Part shown: positions 1 to 17,396 of the stretch, one piece after another | Position numbering within the stretch: position 1 is the first letter of the stretch | Layout of the letters: every line of letters starts with the position of its first letter | Origin: Bacteriovoracaceae bacterium | GTDB taxonomy: Bacteria > Bdellovibrionota > Bacteriovoracia > Bacteriovoracales > Bacteriovoracaceae | Assembly (NCBI GenBank): GCA_041586955.1 | Contig: JBFGZE010000070.1 | Coordinates: 1-19,263 of the forward strand | DNA length: 19,263 nucleotides | Reading direction: 5' to 3' | Notes under the pieces: model-generated | Databases searched by the model: none | Told to the model about the DNA's origin: nothing | The model's input: only the letters and a program-made list of their open reading frames with translations | Translations under genes and position numbers: made by a program

Positions 1-770
1 AGCGATGGGGTTCCAAAAGTATGAAGACCATTAATAAGTTCCTTTCCATTTTCCTGAATAAAACGAAGGGCACTGCCACTCATTCCCTTAAAGGTATCAC
101 AGCGATAAGTAATTTGCTCTTCAAGGGGCTCAATTGGGCACTTCACTTCCCACATACTCCCCGCCTCTTTATCTATAGGGTAACCGGTAATAATAACCTC
201 CTGCCCACTTTGAAGATTCGCATTATGGCCATATCCATGCCAGCCAATTTGATCCCCAATACGTCGTTCTAATTCTAATACCGCAAAATCATATTGGACT
301 TCACCAGAATTAATATAACCTTCTAATAGGTGGCCCTTAACCCAACGAACATTGCCATAAGGAGATTGGTCAATAGCAATACGGCCGGCACTAAAGCTCG
401 AGGATGTCAGCCATTTTTGATCTCCAAAATGATAAAGACAATGAGCTGCTGTCAGAATGTGAAAAGGTCCAATTAATGTTCCCGTACAAAGCGTATCAAT
501 TTGGCCGATAACTCGCAAAGGCCAGGAGCTGGTATTAAAGATTCTCCCCCTTTTATAATCTCCCAAAATTAGTTCTGAATTAAAATCAGAATAAAGATAT
601 TTTACAATGCCAATAAATCCCTCTTCATAAGTTTTTGAGGATTTATTCTCCTGATCAGGTAGTTTCAATTGATGTCGTTCGATCAAACCGTTGGGATAAA
701 AGGTAATTGTACTCATACTCAATATCTGAGATGAAAACCATAGGAAAATTAAAATCAACGCTACTTTCAT
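1..770 (-). CDS. Secreted trypsin-like (S1B, V8/glutamyl endopeptidase-like) serine protease; partial, 3' end runs off the window
   Basis: Not in the ORF track. Manual translation from ATG at 770: MKVALILIFLWFSSQILS (signal-like)...CTGTLIGPFHILTAAHCLY...YDFAVLEL...ITGYPIDK...CDTFKGMSGSAL...GLHTFG. His/Asp/Ser triad motifs are present and the frame stays open to the window edge. Confidence 0.9.
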   Translation of the reverse strand, partial: MKVALILIFLWFSSQILSMSTITFYPNGLIERHQLKLPDQENKSSKTYEEGFIGIVKYLYSDFNSELILGDYKRGRIFNTSSWPLRVIGQIDTLCTGTLIGPFHILTAAHCLYHFGDQKWLTSSSFSAGRIAIDQSPYGNVRWVKGHLLEGYINSGEVQYDFAVLELERRIGDQIGWHGYGHNANLQSGQEVIITGYPIDKEAGSMWEVKCPIEPLEEQITYRCDTFKGMSGSALRFIQENGKELINGLHTFGTPS

Positions 771-5619: not shown

Positions 5620-6525
5620 ATGAAATACTTTTTATTATTTATTTTATTGATCCCTTTTTCCATAAAGGCCGAAGATAAGTCAGTTTATGGTGAGGATAAT
5701 AGACGCGATCTTACAGAAGTTAGAAACCCACTCTACCAAAGCTGGGCCAAATCTGTTGCCGCCATGATTTCCACGAACTATCTCTTTGAAGAGGCCAACC
5801 ATTACCGCATCAAAGCAAAAATGTTATCGCAACATGGCATTTGTGAATATGAAAGGTTTTCTCGCCAAATCACTGCTGCAGATTGTTCCGGATTTTTAAT
5901 AGACAAGGACCTTATCGTCACCGCCGGCCATTGCATGACAAAAGTAAGCGATTGCCAAAATTGGAAATGGGTTTTTGATTATAAGGCAAGCAGTCAATAT
6001 AAAATAGGACGCCGCCTAAAAGTTCGTAAGCAAAATGTTTATAAATGCAAAGAGGTCGTGACAAGTATTTTAAAAAATGGCAAATTGACTAACGACTACG
6101 CAATTATCCGCCTTGATCGTCCTGTTCTCGACCGAAGTCCTTTAAAAGTAAGAGAGACGGGAAAGATTGAACGCAATACCCCTCTTGTGATTATGGGTTT
6201 TCCCTCTGGGCTACCTTTAAAAGTCGCTGATAATGCTACTGCCATTGATATTAATCCAAAAACCTATTTCGTGGCCAATACCGATTCTTTTGGTGGCAAT
6301 TCCGGTGCACCAGTTTTTAACGAAGAAACTGGCCTAGTAGAAGGGATTCTAGTCCGTGGTGGCGAAGATTATCATTACGAAAAAAGAGGCAAAAAGCGTT
6401 GCCTCGTTCCTACCATTTGTGACTCCCAAGATCATTGTGAAGGTGAGTCCATTACTCGTATTACAGAAATTATCCCACATCTCCCCTTTACCTCAAAGCA
6501 AGGCTTCAGGACGCAGCGCAACTAA
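5620..6525 (+). CDS. Secreted trypsin-like (S1) serine protease
   Basis: Signal peptide, VYGEDNR, CSGFLI..TAGHC, NDYAIIRLDR, DSFGGNSGAPVF; triad intact. Confidence 0.93.
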   Translation: MKYFLLFILLIPFSIKAEDKSVYGEDNRRDLTEVRNPLYQSWAKSVAAMISTNYLFEEANHYRIKAKMLSQHGICEYERFSRQITAADCSGFLIDKDLIVTAGHCMTKVSDCQNWKWVFDYKASSQYKIGRRLKVRKQNVYKCKEVVTSILKNGKLTNDYAIIRLDRPVLDRSPLKVRETGKIERNTPLVIMGFPSGLPLKVADNATAIDINPKTYFVANTDSFGGNSGAPVFNEETGLVEGILVRGGEDYHYEKRGKKRCLVPTICDSQDHCEGESITRITEIIPHLPFTSKQGFRTQRN

Positions 6526-6605: not shown

Positions 6606-7928
6606 ATGAATAGCTATAAGAATTTATTTCTAGCTTTTATTTTGGCCGTCTTTTTCATGATCCCTGCCCTGCTGGGAGGAGAACCAACGAATTCTCGAAT
6701 TGTGCAAAAAATTATATTAATGGAAATTAATTCTTCCATTAATCCAGCAACGCTGAGCTATTTAAATGCAGGTTATGACAAAGCAGAAAAAGAGTCCTTT
6801 GACATGGTTCTCATTAAAATTAATACTCCTGGTGGCCTCGTTTCAATAACCAAAGAAATCCTCACTCTATTCGGGCAGGCAAATGCACCAACTGTGGTTT
6901 GGGTAACGCCAGAAGGGGCATCAGCGACAAGTGCGGGGGCCCTTATTGCAGCAGGTGCCCATATTTTATACATGTCTCACGGGACGAATATAGGGGCCGC
7001 GACTCCCATTCAATTGGGAAAAGATATCAACTCCAAAGACCTTCGAAAAAAAGCGATCAATGACCTTGTTGCTTTAGTTCGGTCACTTTCAAATGCCCGT
7101 GGAAGAAATGGAGAATTCTTTGCAAAAATGATTGAAGATGCCGCTTCATTTGAAGCAAAGGACGCCCTTAAAAAGGGTCTCATCAATAATATCATCAATA
7201 CAGAAGCGGAATTATTGCAAGATATAGATGGTAGAGAAATCTCTATTATTGGACAAAAAGTTCAACTCCAAACACAGACACCGAATATCGTGTTTTTTGG
7301 CATGGATTTCGGTCAAAAAGTCCTCGACATCTTTGCTAATCCAACGATGGCCTACCTTTTTTTCATTATTGGTGCTGCTTTGGTTTATTTAGAATTGCAG
7401 GCCCCGGGAGGATTTATTGCAGGGGGAATCGGGGTTTTATGTTTATTGCTCGCAGGTATTGGATTTCAAGTTCTTCCGCTTAACTTCGGAGCTTTAGGTT
7501 TAATTATACTTTCTTTTATACTCTTTATCCTAGAGGCCTATATTGTCAGCTATGGTATACTTTCACTCGCAGGATTAATTTCCCTTATATTTGGTTCCCT
7601 CTTTTTATTTCGAACCGATAACGCCTACCTTCAGTTGAGTAATACACTTATTTTTTCTGCCGCCGGTGCTATTGGCCTATTTATCGGATTCATAGGTATT
7701 TATTGGTTTTATGATGCTAAAAATAAAAAGGTCAAACTATTTTATGACCTTAAGGGTAAATCGGGGACCATTGTTAAGTTTCTAGGAGGTCCTCATGATG
7801 GCATCTATCATTATCATATTAAAGTAACTGGAGAAATTTGGCGTGCAGAGTCTGCGACAAAATATGAAGTGAATGATGAATGCTCTATTATATCTCAGGA
7901 CAATGAGAAAATGCATCTCAATATCTAA
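6606..7928 (+). CDS. nfeD: NfeD family membrane-bound serine protease (ClpP-like domain, TM domain, C-terminal OB fold)
   Basis: INTPGG, ATSAGA (catalytic Ser), [15 protein letters not shown] (catalytic Lys region), LELQAPG TM block, [10 protein letters not shown]-fold motif; directly upstream of a stomatin gene. Confidence 0.93.
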
Positions 7929-7939
7929 GGGAGTCTAAT

Positions 7940-8674
7940 ATGAATATTGCGATGATTCCATTTATAGTCATCTTAGTTATACTTTTATTTAATACAATCA
8001 AAATTCTTAACGAATATGAGCGTGCAGTCGTTTTTAGACTAGGTCGCTTTACCGGAATAAGAGGCCCCGGCCTGATCATTCTCATACCGGGTATTGAAAA
8101 AATGCGCCGTATAGATCTAAGAACCGTCACAATGGATATTCCCTCTCAAGACATAATCTCTAAAGATAACGTTACATTAAAAGTTAATGGTGTCGTTTAT
8201 TTTCGAGTCAATAATCCTGAGAAAGCAATTATTGCCGTTGAAGATTTTTTAACTGCGACCGGACAAATTTCACAAACAACCCTTCGCTCTGTCATCGGTC
8301 AGTTTGAACTTGATGAAATCTTATCGCAAAGAGATATGATTAATAATCAATTGCAAAGCATCCTTGATGAACAAACTGAACCCTGGGGAATTAAAGTTTC
8401 AGCTGTAGAAGTTAAGGCCATTGATTTGCCAATCGAAATGCAAAGAGCAATGGCCAAACAAGCAGAGGCAGAAAGAAACAAACGCGCCAAAGTGATTTCT
8501 GCGGAAGGAGAATTAATGGCAGCCGTTAAATTATCTGAGGCCGCTCATATACTTGACCGAGAGAAAAATGCCATTGTCTTGAGATATCTAGATACAATGA
8601 AAGAAATCTCAATCGGTACGGGCAAATCCACCACCTTTTTCCCTCTACCCATTAACTTCCTTAATAATAATTAA
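7940..8674 (+). CDS. SPFH/band 7 stomatin-like (slipin) protein
   Basis: N-terminal [66 protein letters not shown]; 11 nt after nfeD with a GGGAG SD. Confidence 0.96.
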
Positions 8675-10615: not shown

Positions 10616-11263
10616 CTACCTCGTCTCTCCTCTCCTTAGACGAGAAATAATCGCCCCAATAATATTCTCCCATTCTCCAGGAACCAATTCCCAAGTGGCA
10701 ATTTGATTGAAAAAACCTCCTGGAACAATTGTATCGACCTCTATATCTCGTAATTTTTCTAAACTTTGAATCGCTTGTTTGACGTTCTCTTTTTGTAAGA
10801 ATACTGAAAAGTGATCCGTTTCATTAAGAAAGAGATTTTCACCAGTAAATAATATTTTTCTTTTTTCTGTTGTCCATAAAAAACATGAACTTCCTGGTGT
10901 ATGGCCTGGCGTAAAAATTATATCAAAGTCTTGAAAAATTCTTTCATCACCGTTAAAGGTGCCATCAACATGACACCGTTTCTGTATTGCTTCCTTTTCG
11001 GCTTGAGGACAAAATAAAGGGGCATCAAAAAACTCTCGTACGTCATCACAAGATTTGAATGCCTCATCTTGATGACAAATAAATTGTTTTTTAACGCCCC
11101 CATGATCGTGGATAAAATCAAAATGTTTTTTTATTTGGCGAGAATTATATATTAAATAATTACCCTGCTGACGCAATAAAAGGTAGGCACATGTTTTATA
11201 CCTATTCCAGGCAAAGGGCCGGTCAAAATCTGTTTGATACAAATCATCATAAATCTTATTCAT
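10616..11263 (-). CDS. MBL-fold metallo-hydrolase-like protein with non-canonical metal motifs
   Basis: AYLLLRQQGNYLIY, CHQDEA, TPGHTPGS.CF, LFTGE, SLEKL..IVPG. Confidence 0.82.
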   Translation of the reverse strand: MNKIYDDLYQTDFDRPFAWNRYKTCAYLLLRQQGNYLIYNSRQIKKHFDFIHDHGGVKKQFICHQDEAFKSCDDVREFFDAPLFCPQAEKEAIQKRCHVDGTFNGDERIFQDFDIIFTPGHTPGSSCFLWTTEKRKILFTGENLFLNETDHFSVFLQKENVKQAIQSLEKLRDIEVDTIVPGGFFNQIATWELVPGEWENIIGAIISRLRRGETR

Positions 11264-11385
11264 GGCGATCCCTCACAACCACATTACCACTTTCGAAGGA
11301 TGATACCACAAATGAGGAAATTAAAGACTAAAATTTTTTGTAAAACGATTACTTAAATTAGACAGAGTAAAACAGACTAGGAACG

Positions 11386-11422
11386 AAAAAAAACCTGAAC
11401 CATTCAAAGAATGATTCAGGTT
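11386..11422 (-). terminator. Rho-independent terminator of the 11435-11965 gene
   Basis: Minus strand reads AACCTGAATCATTC-TTT-GAATGGTTCAGGTT followed by a T-run, 12 nt after the stop. Confidence 0.85.
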
Positions 11423-11434
11423 GCAATTTATGAT

Positions 11435-11965
11435 TTACAGAAGCACTAATCTGCGACGAAGAACACAACGGCTTCCCCGTTGCCCTATAAAACGGCGCGA
11501 ACGACGACATTGACGTAATGCTTTACGACATGCCCTTCTAAGGGCCATACGTCTTGTCAGGCCAACACCTCGAGCTCTAAAAGTGGAGATTCTAAACCCA
11601 TTACGACTGATTAAATGGGCCCGACATCGTCTAACATATCTTCGTCCAAAGATGGTCCGTCCACCTCTATGACGATGCCGACGAAAACGTGGGTGTTTGT
11701 CAGCATCGACTTGTTCTTGAATAATAGGAGTCGATTGCATTTGCTCATCTACAATTGGTTCCTCACAGGTTCCATTAAGAACCCCTTCTAAAGGTAAGCA
11801 TTTATTCATCGCGTTCTCACAAGCAAGATTCTGATCCTCTCCTTCACCTTCGTAAAAAGTAATAATTTTATTATCAGAGTCAACCATATTCACATCACAG
11901 GAAGCAGCATAAGAAAATTGAATACCAAAAAGGAAAAATAAGGCCGTAAGTAGGAACGATTTCAT
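11435..11965 (-). CDS. Secreted 176-aa protein with two tandem 4-Cys domains (acidic, then Arg-rich)
   Basis: AAGGAG SD before ATG 11965; signal peptide MKSFLLTALFFLFGIQFSYA; own promoter and terminator. The track's 51-aa N-terminal extension is probably not translated. Confidence 0.8.
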   Translation of the reverse strand: MKSFLLTALFFLFGIQFSYAASCDVNMVDSDNKIITFYEGEGEDQNLACENAMNKCLPLEGVLNGTCEEPIVDEQMQSTPIIQEQVDADKHPRFRRHRHRGGRTIFGRRYVRRCRAHLISRNGFRISTFRARGVGLTRRMALRRACRKALRQCRRSRRFIGQRGSRCVLRRRLVLL

Positions 11966-12010
11966 AAATTCTCCTTGGTTTAGAGTATTAACAATAAGAG
12001 TGCATACAAC

Positions 12011-12026
12011 TGCAATTAATAGGCCA
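12011..12026 (-). promoter_or_regulatory. Sigma54 (RpoN) -24/-12 promoter
   Basis: Minus strand TGGCCT-ATTAA-TTGCA versus consensus TGGCAC-N5-TTGCW; exact GG-N10-GC spacing; predicted +1 near 12000, about 35 nt before the ATG. Confidence 0.65.
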
Positions 12027-12302
12027 CGAAGGTATGCAAATTTATCAAGACTTAACGCAATTCTTAATGGTGTCATTAAAGTTTTAGTGTCAAAAAAGGA
12101 CCTATTTTTTTGACTCATTGATTATCCATAAAACAAAAATCTGATTTATAGGTGACAAGTTCGAAAAAGAGATTTTAATAGAAAAAATTAAACAACATGA
12201 AATCCTCCACCTATCATTAACTTTCCAAGTGTATGTTGTTTAAAAATGTCTAAAACAAAAAATAGCTATAGTCGCTCACACATAATAATAAAGATCATAA
12301 AT

Positions 12303-13577
12303 CTAATCAATTGCTTCGGTCATTACAATCTCTAAGATGGTTGAACGCCCGCCCTCTACAGGAACCTCGAGGGACCGTGTTTCAAGCCCTTTTGCTTTGA
12401 TTAAATACTTAATGTTAATGGGATGCTGAGAATCCGTTTTACCAGTAAAGCTCACTCTTTTTAAAAATTTATCGTTAGTGATGAGTTTTTTATTCGCTCT
12501 TAATTTTTTATTTTTTCTTAACGAATGCGGCCGAAAATTATTTAAAAAAACAATTTCAATATCATCATCTGCTAAATCTAAATGATCAGGGGTCTTTATA
12601 TAATTTGTCACGCGATAAATATGACGATCAACATCATTTGCAAAGATATCAATATCATTTCCTTGTAGATGATTTAATATGGGAGCTACCGCGGGATGTC
12701 CACAGTTCAGGTCGTCAAGACATTCTTTTGGTATTAAGGATATACCTGGATAAATAGATCTAAAATGTGATCCCTTAATCAGCTTGTAGGGCGTTCTCTT
12801 GCTTAAACTAAATTCTGTTGCAGCAACAATGGATTTAGAATCACTGCTTTTTGTCTCTTCAAGATAATAAAAATGGTCTGGGTTTGAACTATAAGCGGGA
12901 ACGACATTATCATCCTCACCTAAAAAGGTGCTAAATTTAAAGCTGCGCCCACCAATGGCCAATGTTCTCATTTGTGGGACTAAAGAAAGTACTTTATTGT
13001 AATTTTTAGCTGTATCTAAAATAGTGTCAGATCCAAATGTCATTTCGTTCAATTGTAAACGCCCAAATGGAGAGGCCGGGTTTTTATATTTTAAGAAAGG
13101 TAAATTTGGATAGAGGATGGATTTTCCCATTCCCGCTAACCACGCGCCCCAATATGGTGTTCCGATGGTAATAAAGCTACTCATTTTTTGTGATAATTTA
13201 TAACTAATTGACTGTTTATTTTGGCGAAGTGCATCTTTTAACCATATAAACCCAATTATTCCACCTTGAGAATGACTGATAATAGAAATCCTATCCTTTG
13301 ATCGTAGTCCTTTTTCTTTAAAAAATTTTTTCAAGTAATTATCAAAAAGAAAGGCAAACTCGTTCGTTGATAAAAAATCGTTATCCGTATCATATTCAAA
13401 TGAATGGGATTCAAAACAGTGTCCGAGGTGCTTTTTAATAACATCACCAAGATAACCAAAATTACCTTTATGGCCAGCAACCCCATGAATATTAAAAACA
13501 AAATGACGCCTAGTCTGACAATTCCCCAGGATATTAGAGGTTAAAAAGAACAAAGATAACATTAAAAACTGCTTCAT
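12303..13577 (-). CDS. Secreted alpha/beta hydrolase (lipase/esterase, PGAP1-like) with C-terminal beta-rich domain
   Basis: Signal-like N-terminus, IHGVAG oxyanion region, SHSQGG nucleophile elbow, ITIGTPYWG, EDDNVVP acid, GSH candidate His. Confidence 0.85.
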   Translation of the reverse strand: MKQFLMLSLFFLTSNILGNCQTRRHFVFNIHGVAGHKGNFGYLGDVIKKHLGHCFESHSFEYDTDNDFLSTNEFAFLFDNYLKKFFKEKGLRSKDRISIISHSQGGIIGFIWLKDALRQNKQSISYKLSQKMSSFITIGTPYWGAWLAGMGKSILYPNLPFLKYKNPASPFGRLQLNEMTFGSDTILDTAKNYNKVLSLVPQMRTLAIGGRSFKFSTFLGEDDNVVPAYSSNPDHFYYLEETKSSDSKSIVAATEFSLSKRTPYKLIKGSHFRSIYPGISLIPKECLDDLNCGHPAVAPILNHLQGNDIDIFANDVDRHIYRVTNYIKTPDHLDLADDDIEIVFLNNFRPHSLRKNKKLRANKKLITNDKFLKRVSFTGKTDSQHPINIKYLIKAKGLETRSLEVPVEGGRSTILEIVMTEAID

Positions 13578-15339: not shown

Positions 15340-15795
15340 TTAACCTGGCGGCAAACGTTGAAGAATATCTTGTCTTAAAAATCGTGTCGTTTCAACCGAG
15401 TTATAATGATCAAGGTCTTTACATAATTGGAAACACACGAGTCCCAATAAACTTTTATCTAAATTCTTTTTTAAAATTCCCATAAAGCAAGGTTCCGCAA
15501 CTAACACTAATTTCGAAAATTTATTTTTTGATTTCTTGATGAACTCTTTCACCTCCTTAGCATATAATTGCAAAGAATAATCATTATGGGGATTATCACG
15601 AGTAAATTGTTTACCACTGACAGGACGAGTTTTAACACCAGTCTCTGGAGGATTATTCAAAAAGTCTATATCTTCTTTGACCTCTTCATTATTCGGGATG
15701 CTTTTAACAAGATCCCAGGTCTTACGACCTTTATACACATTATAAATTCTTGTTTTAGACTTTGAACCGACAATTACCCAGTGATTTAATTTCAT
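15340..15795 (-). CDS. Host attachment protein family (AtsE-like, release-factor-related fold)
   Basis: WVIVGSKSKTRIY...YAKEVKEFI..FSKLVLVAEPCFMGILKKNL..KDL fits the family pattern WILVAD..ARIF / FA..LA..L / L.LVA.P.FLG.LR..L / KDL; GAGG SD. Confidence 0.8.
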   Translation of the reverse strand: MKLNHWVIVGSKSKTRIYNVYKGRKTWDLVKSIPNNEEVKEDIDFLNNPPETGVKTRPVSGKQFTRDNPHNDYSLQLYAKEVKEFIKKSKNKFSKLVLVAEPCFMGILKKNLDKSLLGLVCFQLCKDLDHYNSVETTRFLRQDILQRLPPG

Positions 15796-16082: not shown

Positions 16083-17396
16083 TTATAAATTATTAGCACA
16101 GGACGCAAAATGAAGACAATGACCTTTAATATTATCTAAAAGCCCTTTGATAAATGCTTTTTCATCCTTATTAAGTGGCATCTCAGTCGGAATCTCCTCC
16201 TCTAGGACACTTAATTTAGATATTATGTCTTTAGTTATAGTCATTAATTGATTTTTTAATACACGAATGGGAATCCCACAGTCACGACATAATAGAATAA
16301 GATGGTCTGCCTTAATATTTGCCGCTATAAACTCGTTTCCAATTGAAAGGGCCAGTTCATGATCGTGATAAGGGTAGACCTCAAAATTCACAAGACTATA
16401 TAGAGGGGCCAAGTCGACGCCTTTTTTAGTTATTAAATAAGAGATCTTTTTTCCGTGTCCTTCGTAATTAGAAATACAAAGGTTATAAAGCACCCAAATG
16501 AGCGTCTTTAATTTTGCCTGAGTGGGAACTCGGCATTGCTCTGTAAATTTGAACAATTCTGCTAATTTTAATCCTAAGCGTACATGATTAACCTCATGCC
16601 AAGAGCCAAGGTTTTTTTCTTTTTTATATTGAGGCCTAATATTAAGCGCCTGACAGCCATCAATAGCATGCTTTCGAATGATTTCACCGTCATCGCCTTT
16701 TATTCGATCAAATCGAGTCAAAAGAAGAACGGGCCGTTGACCGATTTGCATCAAGTCAACAGGAGCGACATCAAGGCCAATCATTTTTCCTAAACGCATG
16801 CAAAGAAATTCGTTGAGGGCCAAATGAGGCCTATGCTCATCATCCGGCTGAAATTTTAGAATATGGGTACTAATATTCTCGCTATCAGGAAATCGAAAAT
16901 CGCCGTCCTCTTGCAGAATAATGGGTATCTTTACCTGACTTCCGGAAAGTCCGCTGACCCAATCATTTTTCCAAAATATGGAATGAACTCCCATTTCTTT
17001 TTCGATTGGGGCGTTTAACTCATCTAATGCAAATACGATAGGTTTTGGAGGTCGTCCTTTTGCATTCGGGGCCCTAAAACTAACCCCACCGAATATATCA
17101 CGTCCTAAAATTTTGAGAACCTCAAATAGATCAAATTGCTTCAAACGAAATTTACCCAATAATAATTGTCTCATTTCGCCTTCCGGCAATAAGTTTTCCA
17201 AAAAGGTTTTTACTGAGAAGGAATCAGTATGTTCTGTTAAAGGAATATGAGGTGATAGGGGAAAACCATTCTTTAACCACTCTGGCGCATAATTAATACT
17301 GACCAGTTTAGTTTTCGGGTCAAACCTAAACTGTCCAACATATTGATTACCATGCTCAATTTCCAAAATATGAGATTTCTTATAATTCTCACTCAT
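16083..17396 (-). CDS. hipA: HipA-family kinase-like protein (N-terminal Couple_hipA region + HipA_C), predicted catalytically inactive
   Basis: Y...W...GFPLSPHIPL, FLENLLPEG..R, GRDIFGGVSF, LSGSQVKIP, STHILK, NEFLCM, RFDR, DGCQAL, NYEGHGKKIS, LAPLYS. Confidence 0.88.
   Translation of the reverse strand: MSENYKKSHILEIEHGNQYVGQFRFDPKTKLVSINYAPEWLKNGFPLSPHIPLTEHTDSFSVKTFLENLLPEGEMRQLLLGKFRLKQFDLFEVLKILGRDIFGGVSFRAPNAKGRPPKPIVFALDELNAPIEKEMGVHSIFWKNDWVSGLSGSQVKIPIILQEDGDFRFPDSENISTHILKFQPDDEHRPHLALNEFLCMRLGKMIGLDVAPVDLMQIGQRPVLLLTRFDRIKGDDGEIIRKHAIDGCQALNIRPQYKKEKNLGSWHEVNHVRLGLKLAELFKFTEQCRVPTQAKLKTLIWVLYNLCISNYEGHGKKISYLITKKGVDLAPLYSLVNFEVYPYHDHELALSIGNEFIAANIKADHLILLCRDCGIPIRVLKNQLMTITKDIISKLSVLEEEIPTEMPLNKDEKAFIKGLLDNIKGHCLHFASCANNL

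Follow-up and report, generated by a model that had tools for sequence, protein, structure and literature searches.

Alpha-defensins carry anionic propieces, and eosinophil major basic protein (MBP), which has a C-type lectin fold, is preceded by a propiece that is not a copy of MBP. As described in PMC2189086, proMBP comprises a signal peptide, an acidic Asp/Glu-rich pro-portion and then the Arg-rich basic protein, with pI values of 3.9 for the pro-portion, 10.9 for MBP and 6.2 for the whole precursor, and its authors proposed that the precursor is non-toxic through its distinct anionic and cationic regions. Thionin preproproteins, in the account given in PMC8279376, consist of a signal peptide, the basic thionin and a Cys-containing acidic domain, one example having pI values of 9.54 for the basic part and 4.26 for the acidic domain.

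Here we describe a bacterial gene, found in a 19,263-bp window (the whole stretch of DNA analysed), whose product, P0001, resembles both of these precursors as they are described in those accounts: like proMBP it has a signal peptide, an acidic part first and an Arg-rich part after it, and like the thionin precursor it would pair a basic, disulfide-bonded secreted peptide with an acidic domain that conserves its cysteines. The differences are as instructive. ProMBP is eukaryotic, and PDB and Foldseek searches gave no sequence or fold relation between the two; the acidic part of P0001 is a paralogue of its basic domain, unlike the propiece of proMBP; and whereas the charges of proMBP nearly cancel, P0001 combines distinct anionic (net -13, pI 4.1) and cationic (net +31, pI 12.0) regions in a mature protein that remains strongly basic (+18, pI 11.1), as does its nearest relative, P0003 (+27, pI 11.3). 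In the thionins, which are plant proteins, the order is reversed, with the acidic domain C-terminal; the thionin has 6-8 Cys and its acidic domain 6 (3+3), and that account does not describe the two as copies of one domain.

The P0001 open reading frame spans 11435-11965 on the minus strand and encodes 176 aa (Table 1). We favour the ATG at 11965 as its start because the longer database gene call would enclose the sigma54-like element TGGCCTATTAATTGCA; the alternative ATG at 12118 lacks an AAGGAG-type RBS. Sigma54 promoters have GG and GC 10 nt apart in a TGGCAC-N5-TTGCW context, and TGGCCTATTAATTGCA, on the coding strand upstream of P0001, has this spacing and context. It is the sole match in the window to TGGC-N7-TTGCW, a pattern drawn up after the site had already been seen, with 0.25 matches expected. 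A preliminary sequence-only reading of this DNA had assigned the gene a sigma54-type promoter and a terminator of its own: the terminator was borne out, with its stem and T run, placed at 11422-11392, just past the stop codon, and a matching promoter element is indeed present, although at least one match to the pattern also arose in 42 of 200 shuffles of the window, and we regard TGGCCTATTAATTGCA as a candidate, sigma54-like promoter. Pfam/NCBIfam-type annotation of the window genes showed no rpoN and no activator gene, and literature search results held nothing relevant on sigma54 in Bdellovibrio. Short repeats (GTGTCA..., two copies) lie upstream of the gene at 12070-12098, and an Rfam scan of 11000-12600 returned just two sub-threshold matches to miRNA models.

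P0001 is a singleton in 90% identity clusters, and it overlaps a second, acidic ORF of 45 aa that lies at 11611-11748 on the same strand but in a different frame. The gene is nonetheless real: it has an RBS and a terminator, GC3 is the same in its two halves (0.29 and 0.28), and homologues match it in frame. It is separately terminated and encodes an exported protein with eight conserved cysteines, export being indicated by a leader that the whole family shares.

Table 1. Features of the P0001 locus. Positions are those of the window. Type A denotes a C-x25-C-x6-C domain copy and type B a C-x30/31-C-x6-C copy.
Feature	Position	Strand	Details
Sigma54-like -24/-12 element TGGCCTATTAATTGCA	12011..12026	-	GG 12025-12024, GC 12013-12012; 47 nt to ATG
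RBS AAGGAG	11971..11976	-	5 nt (AATTT) ahead of ATG 11965-11963
Signal-peptide-like leader MKSFLLTALFFLFGIQFSYA	11906..11965	-	Residues 1-20; cleavage site judged by eye
Domain 1, type A, C23-C67	11765..11899	-	C-x25-C-x6-C-x10-C; net -7 (0 R, 2 K, 4 D, 5 E)
Linker, acidic half EEPIVDEQMQSTPIIQEQVDADK	11696..11764	-	Residues 68-90
Linker, basic half HPRFRRHRHRGGRTIFGRRYVRR	11627..11695	-	Residues 91-113; 10 R, 3 H; one PRFxR unit
Domain 2, type B, C114-C167	11465..11626	-	C-x31-C-x6-C-x13-C; net +18 (17 R, 1 K, 0 D/E)
C-terminal tail VLRRRLVLL and stop codon	11435..11464	-	
Intrinsic terminator	11382..11422	-	14-bp stem, 3-nt loop, T8; 13 nt past stop

The encoded protein is divided sharply by charge. 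Its leader, set at 20 aa from the n, h and c regions judged by eye (MK, a hydrophobic stretch, and SYA/A, the slash marking the cut) and from alignment with relatives, is signal-peptide-like and agrees with the 20-aa signal peptide proposed earlier. The cysteines fall at residues 23, 49, 56, 67, 114, 146, 153 and 167, giving spacings of 25/6/10 in domain 1, 46 between the domains and 31/6/13 in domain 2. In the mature protein, the first 70 residues hold 7 D, 9 E and 3 K with no R, and the last 86 hold 30 R, 1 K and 4 H with no D/E. Residue by residue, these counts reproduce the Cys spacings of both domains that the sequence-only reading gave, and likewise its 16 D/E without Arg in the first 70 positions and 30 Arg without D/E in the last 86. 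Were residues placed at random along the 156 mature positions, the first 70 would take up all 16 D/E with p = 9e-7, and the last 86 all 30 R with p = 1e-9.

The two halves of P0001 are, by comparison of their sequences, true paralogous copies of one domain. A BLOSUM62 local alignment of the halves scored 29, against 17.0 +/- 2.9 for shuffled sequences (6 of 2000 shuffles as high), and a charge-blind matrix raised this to 38 against 20.3 +/- 3.5 (1 of 2000). A profile built from 18 domain copies taken from the relatives P0004-P0010 only, and thus foreign to P0001, recognized both halves (28.4 bits for the first, 39.6 bits for the second), and none of 500 shuffles with the cysteines kept fixed reached the score of either. 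Across the family, hhalign joined the 13 x25 copies to the 9 x30/31 copies with a probability of 97.6% (E = 2.7e-12), columns 1-21 aligning without gaps. The internal duplication that had been claimed is thereby upheld, together with its gap-free alignment over the first 20 residues; the claim that D/E positions had been recoded to R between the copies fared less well. Five of the nine acidic columns of domain 1 do lie opposite R/K in domain 2, where 3.1 would be expected if the two were independent, an excess too small to argue strongly for a mirrored interface.

AlphaFold predicts the same strand-strand-helix-strand order for both halves, in keeping with the shared fold that had been proposed as a check on the duplication. 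The elements of domain 1 are E21-28, E34-42, H45-63 and E66-68; pLDDT averages about 84 over domain 1 and 90-94 over domain 2, and domain 2 modelled alone keeps the E-E-H-E order at pLDDT 93 and pTM 0.76. The full-length model reaches a pTM of only 0.44, and pLDDT falls below 50 over residues 72-105, a linker that is thus predicted to be unstructured. Foldseek searches against PDB and BFVD with the full model and with domain 2 gave nothing at E < 0.1, and ESM Atlas gave no usable match for the whole protein or for domain 2. About 11 of the full-model Foldseek matches listed are dsRNA-binding-domain proteins (E = 0.1 to 3, probability <= 0.28), and domain 2 superposes best on the protein L B1 domain (TM 0.52, E = 5.9); we set both aside as generic resemblance among small alpha/beta folds.

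Another comparison for such a domain is the CSH motif, described in PMC5116183 as a helix followed by two strands, with 3 residues between the helix cysteines and 1 between the strand cysteines, and found there in AdDLP, a myxobacterial defensin-like peptide with 4 Cys. As portrayed in that source, these peptides share with the P0001 domain a small size, four cysteines, a two-Cys helix tied to strands by two disulfides and a bacterial origin. A CS-alpha-beta/CSH defensin-like identity is nevertheless not supported, given the C-x6-C helix pair, the lack of C-x-C and the E-E-H-E order, and there was no defensin or toxin among the Foldseek matches listed at E <= 10 for the full model and domain 2. 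More broadly, PDB, Foldseek and Pfam searches gave no fold or sequence tie between P0001 and any known antimicrobial peptide.

Database searches likewise bear out the claim that no described family has this design. Pfam and NCBIfam scans of P0001, of both halves and of the relatives assigned no family, the best matches lying far under the cut-offs (DUF6520, E = 0.12; DUF4278, E = 0.052), neither the family profile A3 nor the C half matched any PDB sequence at E <= 10, and PADLOC gave no match for P0001, its halves or its relatives. The sole PHROGs matches, "tail fiber" matches to P0003 (E = 0.005 to 0.24), fall in its R/G-rich linker, residues 76-147, and we take them to be low-complexity matches. 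The family accession numbers were absent from the literature searched, and at the level of search results there was nothing relevant on a described cationic or Cys-rich secreted protein of Bdellovibrio.

P0001 does, however, have relatives in sequence databases: eight other clusters (P0003-P0010), each with 2-3 tandem copies of the domain. From P0001, phmmer found P0003 at E = 1.2e-13 (44% identity in pairwise alignment) and five others at 5e-5 to 1e-3, and the part matched by P0004-P0008, in the P0001 frame, is the Arg-rich domain 2. All nine family proteins have a hydrophobic leader followed by at least two tandem copies, and in the seven proteins of alignment A1 the initial M falls in the same column, ahead of the hydrophobic leader. 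The nine proteins together hold 22 copies (five proteins with 2, four with 3), and in 22 of 22 the second and third cysteines are separated by six residues. The family shares an AC-x2-A-x3-C motif at this pair; C23, A48, C49, A52, C56, C114, A145, C146, C153 and C167 are invariant in the seven aligned sequences. Copy order is fixed, since none of the 13 x25 copies is last and every one of the 9 x30/31 copies is, and in type B copies an exposed loop ahead of the helix, G-x-x-G-T-G-V-K/R, is conserved. P0001 shows the leader and tandem copies, the Cys/AC-x2-A-x3-C frame, the x25-then-x31 order and similarity beyond the cysteines. Members of the family thus consist of two or three tandem four-Cys strand-strand-helix-strand domains of ~50 aa, in which a single type B copy always comes after one or two of type A.

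This family is rare, undescribed and Arg-rich as a whole. A word-index search with P0001 found itself alone among 128 candidates and one with P0003 found itself alone among 8000 scored, and the same search with alignment A1 gave 5 proteins, 2 of them new. The only matches of alignment A2 in representative-genome contigs, two Shinella loci, were 20-residue chance matches without the Cys frame and were rejected. Organism names could be attached to 2 of the 21 proteins read, both in one distant three-domain cluster (OFZ16105.1 / HAZ13551.1, Bdellovibrionales bacterium GWA2_49_15, and MBI2521733.1, Bdellovibrio sp.; all MAGs).

How far does the charge split extend across these relatives? The sequence-only reading had asked for conserved charge asymmetry among homologues, and the outcome is mixed: an acidic-then-basic split recurs in P0003 (N part -14, C part +41) and is lacking in the other seven of the eight related clusters, so that its conservation rests on two sequences. 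In these two, the A copy has turned acidic along with the linker half next to it, and the rest of the linker has become hyper-Arg along with the B copy, giving a cationic density far above that of any other member. The switch itself, V-D-x-D-K and then a basic run, aligns between them, and P0003 extends the basic side into an R/G-rich stretch (45 R and 27 G in 143 residues) that includes two PRFNR units. The acidic charge is nearly equal at 44% identity, -13 in P0001 and -14 in P0003. Elsewhere in the family, the two-domain proteins P0005, P0006 and P0008, whose copies are both basic, carry net charges of +22, +25 and +20, and the four three-domain relatives are near neutral (net -1 to +4), with P/Y/G-rich linkers and 8-9% Tyr, compared with 1% Tyr in P0001 and P0003.

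Taken together, these features suggest that P0001 may be a polycation that binds polyanions, its acidic paralogous copy serving as a pro-domain or counter-domain, a tentative reading to which we assign a probability of about 0.35. P0001 would be exported by Sec and form its disulfides in the periplasm, after which the Arg-rich C-terminal module would bind a polyanion, whether the phosphates of lipid A or phospholipid or a nucleic acid. The acidic paralogous copy would act as a built-in counter-domain that keeps the first-translocated part of the chain non-cationic, and may partly shield or solubilise the polycation until cleavage of the flexible linker or contact with a stronger polyanion. Such a scheme would follow the logic of the proMBP, defensin and thionin precursors, with the anionic part being a recoded copy of the effector and compensation being partial. 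The preference for Arg over Lys, as read from composition, points to guanidinium-specific binding beyond mere positive charge, because the Arg:Lys ratio in the C half of P0001 is 30:1, the window's 15 other genes are richer in K (K 7.7%, R 4.9%), and R is well above K in all nine family proteins. P0001 might plausibly be used on prey or on competing cells, the link to predators being a weak, taxonomic one because organism names come from one of the eight related clusters.

The stronger claim of the sequence-only reading was of a self-neutralising precursor. What stands of it is an extreme charge split that P0003 keeps; what does not is full neutralisation, since the acidic charge compensates for under half of the basic charge in both P0001 (-13 vs +31) and P0003 (-14 vs +41), the mature pI is 11.1, and basic relatives do without a mask. 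Indeed, members of this family can be polycations with no acidic mask, because the three two-domain members at net +20 to +25 have both copies basic, and an acidic copy is therefore dispensable in the family both for export and for carrying a polycation. In its boldest form, the proposal is of a "paralogue-masked" polycation, in which a bacterium of a predator lineage would export an Arg-rich, disulfide-stapled effector fused to a charge-inverted copy of its own domain. This copy would dock on the effector or restrain it in some other way until the linker is cut, and the released module would attack another cell at its envelope or nucleic acid. We consider this unlikely, while adding that we know of no described antimicrobial precursor whose pro-domain arose by duplication and charge inversion of its effector.

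Several other accounts of the acidic copy have to be weighed against the counter-domain reading. P0001 may instead be an uncleaved bipolar protein, whose opposite blocks cooperate in the intact chain, either through head-to-tail self-association or coacervate-like assembly (as an adhesive, matrix or surface coat) or with the Arg block on a polyanion and the acidic domain on a cation or cationic partner; incomplete charge balance, awkward for masking, poses no difficulty here. Compositions rich in R/G, or in P/Y/G with much Tyr, favour phase separation or adhesion, and the strictly segregated charge blocks of P0001 with a flexible linker between them, the long R/G-rich stretch of P0003 and the Tyr-rich P/Y/G linkers of the three-domain relatives all fit such a role. 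However, P0001 and P0003 themselves are poor in Tyr, Pfam, PDB and Foldseek searches gave no likeness to a known adhesive or matrix protein, and no neighbour gene in the window suggests a surface structure, leaving this account possible but somewhat doubtful. We think it less probable still that the acidic copy is mainly an aid to export and folding, offering the translocon a folded handle and an early mature region that is not cationic, so that 86 residues with 30 Arg can cross the inner membrane against the membrane potential, with no role in masking. Sec export is blocked when the mature chain is positively charged near its start, and the first 20 mature residues are net -3 in P0001 and -7 in P0003, the two members of highest cationic density. 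The positive-inside rule, described in PMC9360617, argues in the same direction. Yet P0005, P0006 and P0008 have +3, +4 and +2 in the same 20 residues, counts that hinge on cleavage sites placed by eye, and a whole 45-residue domain with an acidic linker exceeds what export needs.

The remaining alternatives are much weaker. Tandem small disulfide-bonded domains, the conserved exposed loop of type B copies and two trypsin-like protease genes in the window (3-770 and 5620-6525) would suit an inhibitor, or a decoy substrate, of the cell's own trypsin-like proteases, with Arg-rich loops as bait. This is improbable, as P0001 itself does not keep the loop motif (GVGLTRRMAL), the Pfam search gave no inhibitor family (its sole match at E <= 10 being DUF6520), Foldseek gave no inhibitor folds at E < 0.1, and the acidic copy would be left unexplained. 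That P0001 is not a functional gene at all, being a chance ORF or a frame error with Arg-rich read-through, might be suspected from its singleton status, its extreme composition and the overlapping acidic ORF. In-frame relatives, invariant cysteines and the foreign-profile scores effectively refute this: five independent relatives match the Arg-rich half in frame with its four cysteines in register, this half is the better scoring of the two against the foreign-copy profile, and the RBS, terminator and equal GC3 all speak for a gene.

Masking aside, P0001 and its relatives newly define a secreted domain family, of ~50 aa and four Cys with type A preceding type B, whose fold is confidently predicted and has no relative among solved structures. 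Should the paralogue-masked reading be true, P0001 would be the first bacterial example of such a polycation. If the acidic copy does restrain the Arg-rich copy, the family would provide a new compact, disulfide-stapled polycation scaffold from bacteria and would illustrate a simple route to a safe precursor, in which an effector domain is duplicated and the charge of one copy is inverted.

We found that P0001, a 176-aa protein with an acidic domain 1 and an Arg-rich domain 2, carries cysteines at positions 23, 49, 56 and 67 (domain 1) and 114, 146, 153 and 167 (domain 2), with spacings of 25/6/10 and then 31/6/13. Its first 70 mature residues hold 16 D/E and no Arg and its last 86 hold 30 Arg, one Lys and no D/E; under random placement, the confinement of all acidic residues to the first part has p = 9e-7 and that of all Arg to the second p = 1e-9. 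Each figure of the sequence-only reading for Cys spacing and charge was thereby reproduced. Aligned with each other, the halves score 29 with BLOSUM62 (local; shuffled 17.0 ± 2.9, reached by 6 of 2,000) and 38 with a charge-blind matrix (shuffled 20.3 ± 3.5, reached by 1 of 2,000), moderate evidence for a repeat from this sequence by itself. At the sequence level, the relatives settle that the repeat is real: a foreign profile of 18 domain copies, all from other proteins, gives 28.4 bits for half 1 and 39.6 bits for half 2, neither reached by any of 500 shuffles with Cys held fixed, and a profile of 13 type A copies (C-x25-C-x6-C) matches one of 9 type B copies (C-x30/31-C-x6-C) with an hhalign probability of 97.6% (E = 2.7e-12), columns 1–21 being free of gaps. 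Two copies of one domain with an ungapped start, as had been proposed, are thus borne out and the A/B duplication is ancient; the accompanying claim that D/E positions became Arg is only loosely true, with five of nine acidic columns opposite R/K where 3.1 are expected.

A phmmer search of 1.84 billion representative proteins returned seven proteins at E ≤ 0.001, P0001 itself among them, and word-index searches added two further relatives, giving eight other clusters in all (P0003–P0010). A word-index search with P0001 or its nearest relative P0003 as sole query recovered the query only, and a profile search of GTDB representative genomes gave just two matches, both in Shinella, which proved on checking to be chance. 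Each of the nine family members begins with a hydrophobic leader, followed by two or three tandem domain copies (22 copies), the x25 form always first and the single x30/31 form always last; P0001 and P0003 share 44% identity when aligned pairwise. By its sequence, P0001 is a member of an unnamed, undescribed family defined by this analysis, and in the papers searched we found no description of it and no accessions of its named members (subscription-only articles and ~1.7 million PMC articles lay outside the scope). Of 21 proteins, 2 carry organism names, "Bdellovibrionales bacterium GWA2_49_15" and "Bdellovibrio sp."; they come from MAGs and fall in one cluster, and from this distant cluster we tentatively infer a predator context, with which the low GC of the window (~37%) and its two trypsin-like protease genes are consistent.

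Taken from its sequence features, the P0001 gene is real and its product exported, Cys-conserving and two-domain. The public call of the same gene (P0002, 227 aa) starts at an ATG at 12118, 51 codons upstream of 11965. We take 11965 as the start because 12118 lacks a ribosome-binding site, the longer frame buries a promoter-like element, and all relatives begin at 11965 in the alignment; the start at 12118 is probably mis-called. The sequence-only reading had given the gene its own sigma54-type promoter and terminator; the terminator is present, and the putative promoter is a sigma54-like element (TGGCCTATTAATTGCA), its GC 47 nt ahead of the ATG, that is the sole match in the window (0.25 expected; at least one match in 42 of 200 shuffles). 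Around its core lies an imperfect inverted repeat (ATAAGAGTGCATAC / GTATGCAAATTTAT, 79% complementary, 24 nt apart), and a direct repeat (GTGTCATTAAAG / GTGTCAAAAAAG, 17-nt spacing) precedes the core by ~45–85 nt; the repeats may serve as operator or activator sites, or may have arisen by chance in AT-rich DNA. The two halves of the gene do not differ in GC3 (0.29 and 0.28); the higher GC of the second mirrors only its Arg codons. A 45-aa acidic frame (…EVDGPSLDEDMLDDVGPI) overlapping the basic-linker coding region was rejected as a second gene: Arg codons moved by one base become Asp or Glu codons, and the frame is a composition echo of this shift.

Features of the P0001 gene and other genes of the window
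Feature	Position	Strand	Basis
P0001 ORF, 176 aa	11435–11965	minus	ORF reading
Ribosome-binding site AAGGAG	5 nt before ATG at 11965	minus	sequence reading
Terminator, 14-bp stem and T run	13 nt past P0001 stop	minus	sequence reading
P0002 extension, contains sigma54-like element	11966–12118	minus	
Inverted repeat	11994–12045		
Direct repeat	12070–12098		
Overlapping acidic ORF, other frame	11611–11748	minus	
DUF676-type putative serine esterase/lipase, 424 aa	12303–13577	minus	Pfam E = 4e-7
Trypsin-like serine protease	3–770	minus	Pfam Trypsin / Trypsin_2
Trypsin-like serine protease	5620–6525	plus	Pfam Trypsin / Trypsin_2
NfeD-like membrane protease and SPFH/Band-7 protein	6606–8674	plus	
CDGSH/glutamate-synthase protein, 488 aa	1621–3087	minus	Pfam E = 7e-18 and 3e-58
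Host_attach / baeRF family 12 protein	15340–15795	minus	
HipA-like kinase	16083–17396	minus	HipA_C E = 5e-32

Directly upstream of P0001 lies the DUF676-type gene, whose product is probably exported too because of its hydrophobic N-terminus; 337 bp of non-coding DNA, with the promoter-like element inside, separate the two genes. Elsewhere in the window, the NfeD-like and SPFH/Band-7 genes adjoin as the usual NfeD–stomatin operon pair, the Host_attach gene lies near that of the HipA-like kinase, and the 488-aa protein joins two N-terminal CDGSH iron-sulfur finger matches to a glutamate-synthase central domain, an uncommon-looking fusion.

AlphaFold2 modelling of full P0001 (12-row alignment; mean pLDDT 73, pTM 0.44) predicted a strand-strand-helix-strand order in both domain 1 (pLDDT ~84) and domain 2 (90–94), and the same order recurred with domain 2 modelled by itself (pLDDT 93, pTM 0.76). 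The halves are therefore predicted to share a fold, as anticipated, with a flexible linker between them (residues 72–105, pLDDT <50). The C-x6-C pair sits in the modelled helix, the first Cys in strand 1 and the last in strand 3, which suggests a helix stapled onto the sheet through two disulfides of inferred connectivity. In type B copies of P0004–P0006, P0008 and P0010, a 5–6-residue insertion ahead of the helix bears a conserved loop, G-x-x-G-T-G-V-K/R, that P0001 (GVGLTRRMAL) and P0003 both lack. Foldseek gave no match at E < 0.1 in PDB or BFVD, PDB sequence and profile searches no match, and ESM Atlas no usable match. The excerpt of PMC5116183 describes CS-alpha-beta / CSH defensin-like peptides with C-x3-C in the helix, C-x-C in a strand and the helix before the strands, whereas in P0001 the helix pair is spaced C-x6-C, C-x-C is absent and strands and helix follow the order given above; by Cys spacing and element order, membership of that class as outlined there is ruled out.

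Charge in P0001 and its relatives
Protein	Copies	Charge by part	Net charge
P0001	2	domain 1 −7, domain 2 +18; N-terminal 70 residues −13 (pI 4.1), C-terminal 86 residues +31 (pI 12.0)	mature +18 (pI 11.1)
P0003	2	N part −14, C part +41 (45 R and 27 G in 143 residues)	mature +27 (pI 11.3)
P0005, P0006, P0008	2	both basic	+22, +25, +20
P0004, P0007, P0009, P0010	3	near neutral	+4, −1, +3, +1

The charge asymmetry expected among homologs is kept in P0003 and shared by only this one of the eight related clusters; extreme segregation is conserved within a two-member subgroup, P0001 and P0003. Both also conserve the linker switch point, V-D-x-D-K followed by basic sequence. The ~90-residue R/G-rich linker of P0003 (residues 93–182) has two PRFNR units against a single PRFRR in P0001, and the basic linker seems to grow through tandem expansion of this short unit; the P0003 linker gave weak PHROGs "tail fiber" matches, low-complexity in look. 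Arg-richness with a clear excess of R over K is common to the family, and the other 15 window genes favour Lys (7.7%) over Arg (4.9%).

The 30:1 Arg:Lys ratio of the C-terminal 86 residues in a Lys-favouring genome argues for binding of the guanidinium-phosphate type. By analogy, we tentatively propose (probability about 0.35) that the Arg-rich linker and type B copy would form a polyanion-binding module, with the acidic type A copy as a built-in counter-domain that would ease export and partly shield the polycation, and with the flexible linker as a possible cleavage site; the two trypsin-like proteases are possible processing enzymes for such an Arg-rich substrate. Doubtful, and worth keeping in view, is a protein that stays uncleaved, its opposite blocks driving assembly or dual binding. 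Against the counter-domain proposal stand the incomplete charge compensation and the net +20 to +25 of P0005, P0006 and P0008, reached without an acidic copy and with positively charged early mature regions; those regions also weaken the unlikely idea that the acidic copy is purely an export aid, which the positive-inside rule, as far as the excerpt of PMC9360617 presents it, would favour. A tandem protease inhibitor or decoy is improbable, no inhibitor family having been matched, and an artefact ORF is practically out of the question, refuted by relatives in the same frame, their alignment and the foreign-profile scores.

In working logic, the polyanion-binding proposal comes closest to anionic-propiece/cationic-effector precursors: excerpts of the literature propose joined anionic and cationic regions for proMBP (PMC2189086) and discuss a similar logic for thionin acidic domains (PMC8279376). 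P0001 fails their defining near-neutral balance, and the self-neutralisation once suggested for it does not yet hold: the acidic part offsets under half of the cationic charge, leaving a mature pI of 11.1 against 6.2 for the whole proMBP precursor in that excerpt. That interpretation is partly supported, in the duplication, the shared fold, the flexible linker and the split kept in P0003; its cleavage step, contact between the halves and use on prey are conjectural. Charge-segregated secreted precursors are thus already known in kind; what appears new in P0001 is a charge-segregated secreted protein whose acidic part is a recoded paralogue of its basic domain, within a new domain family.
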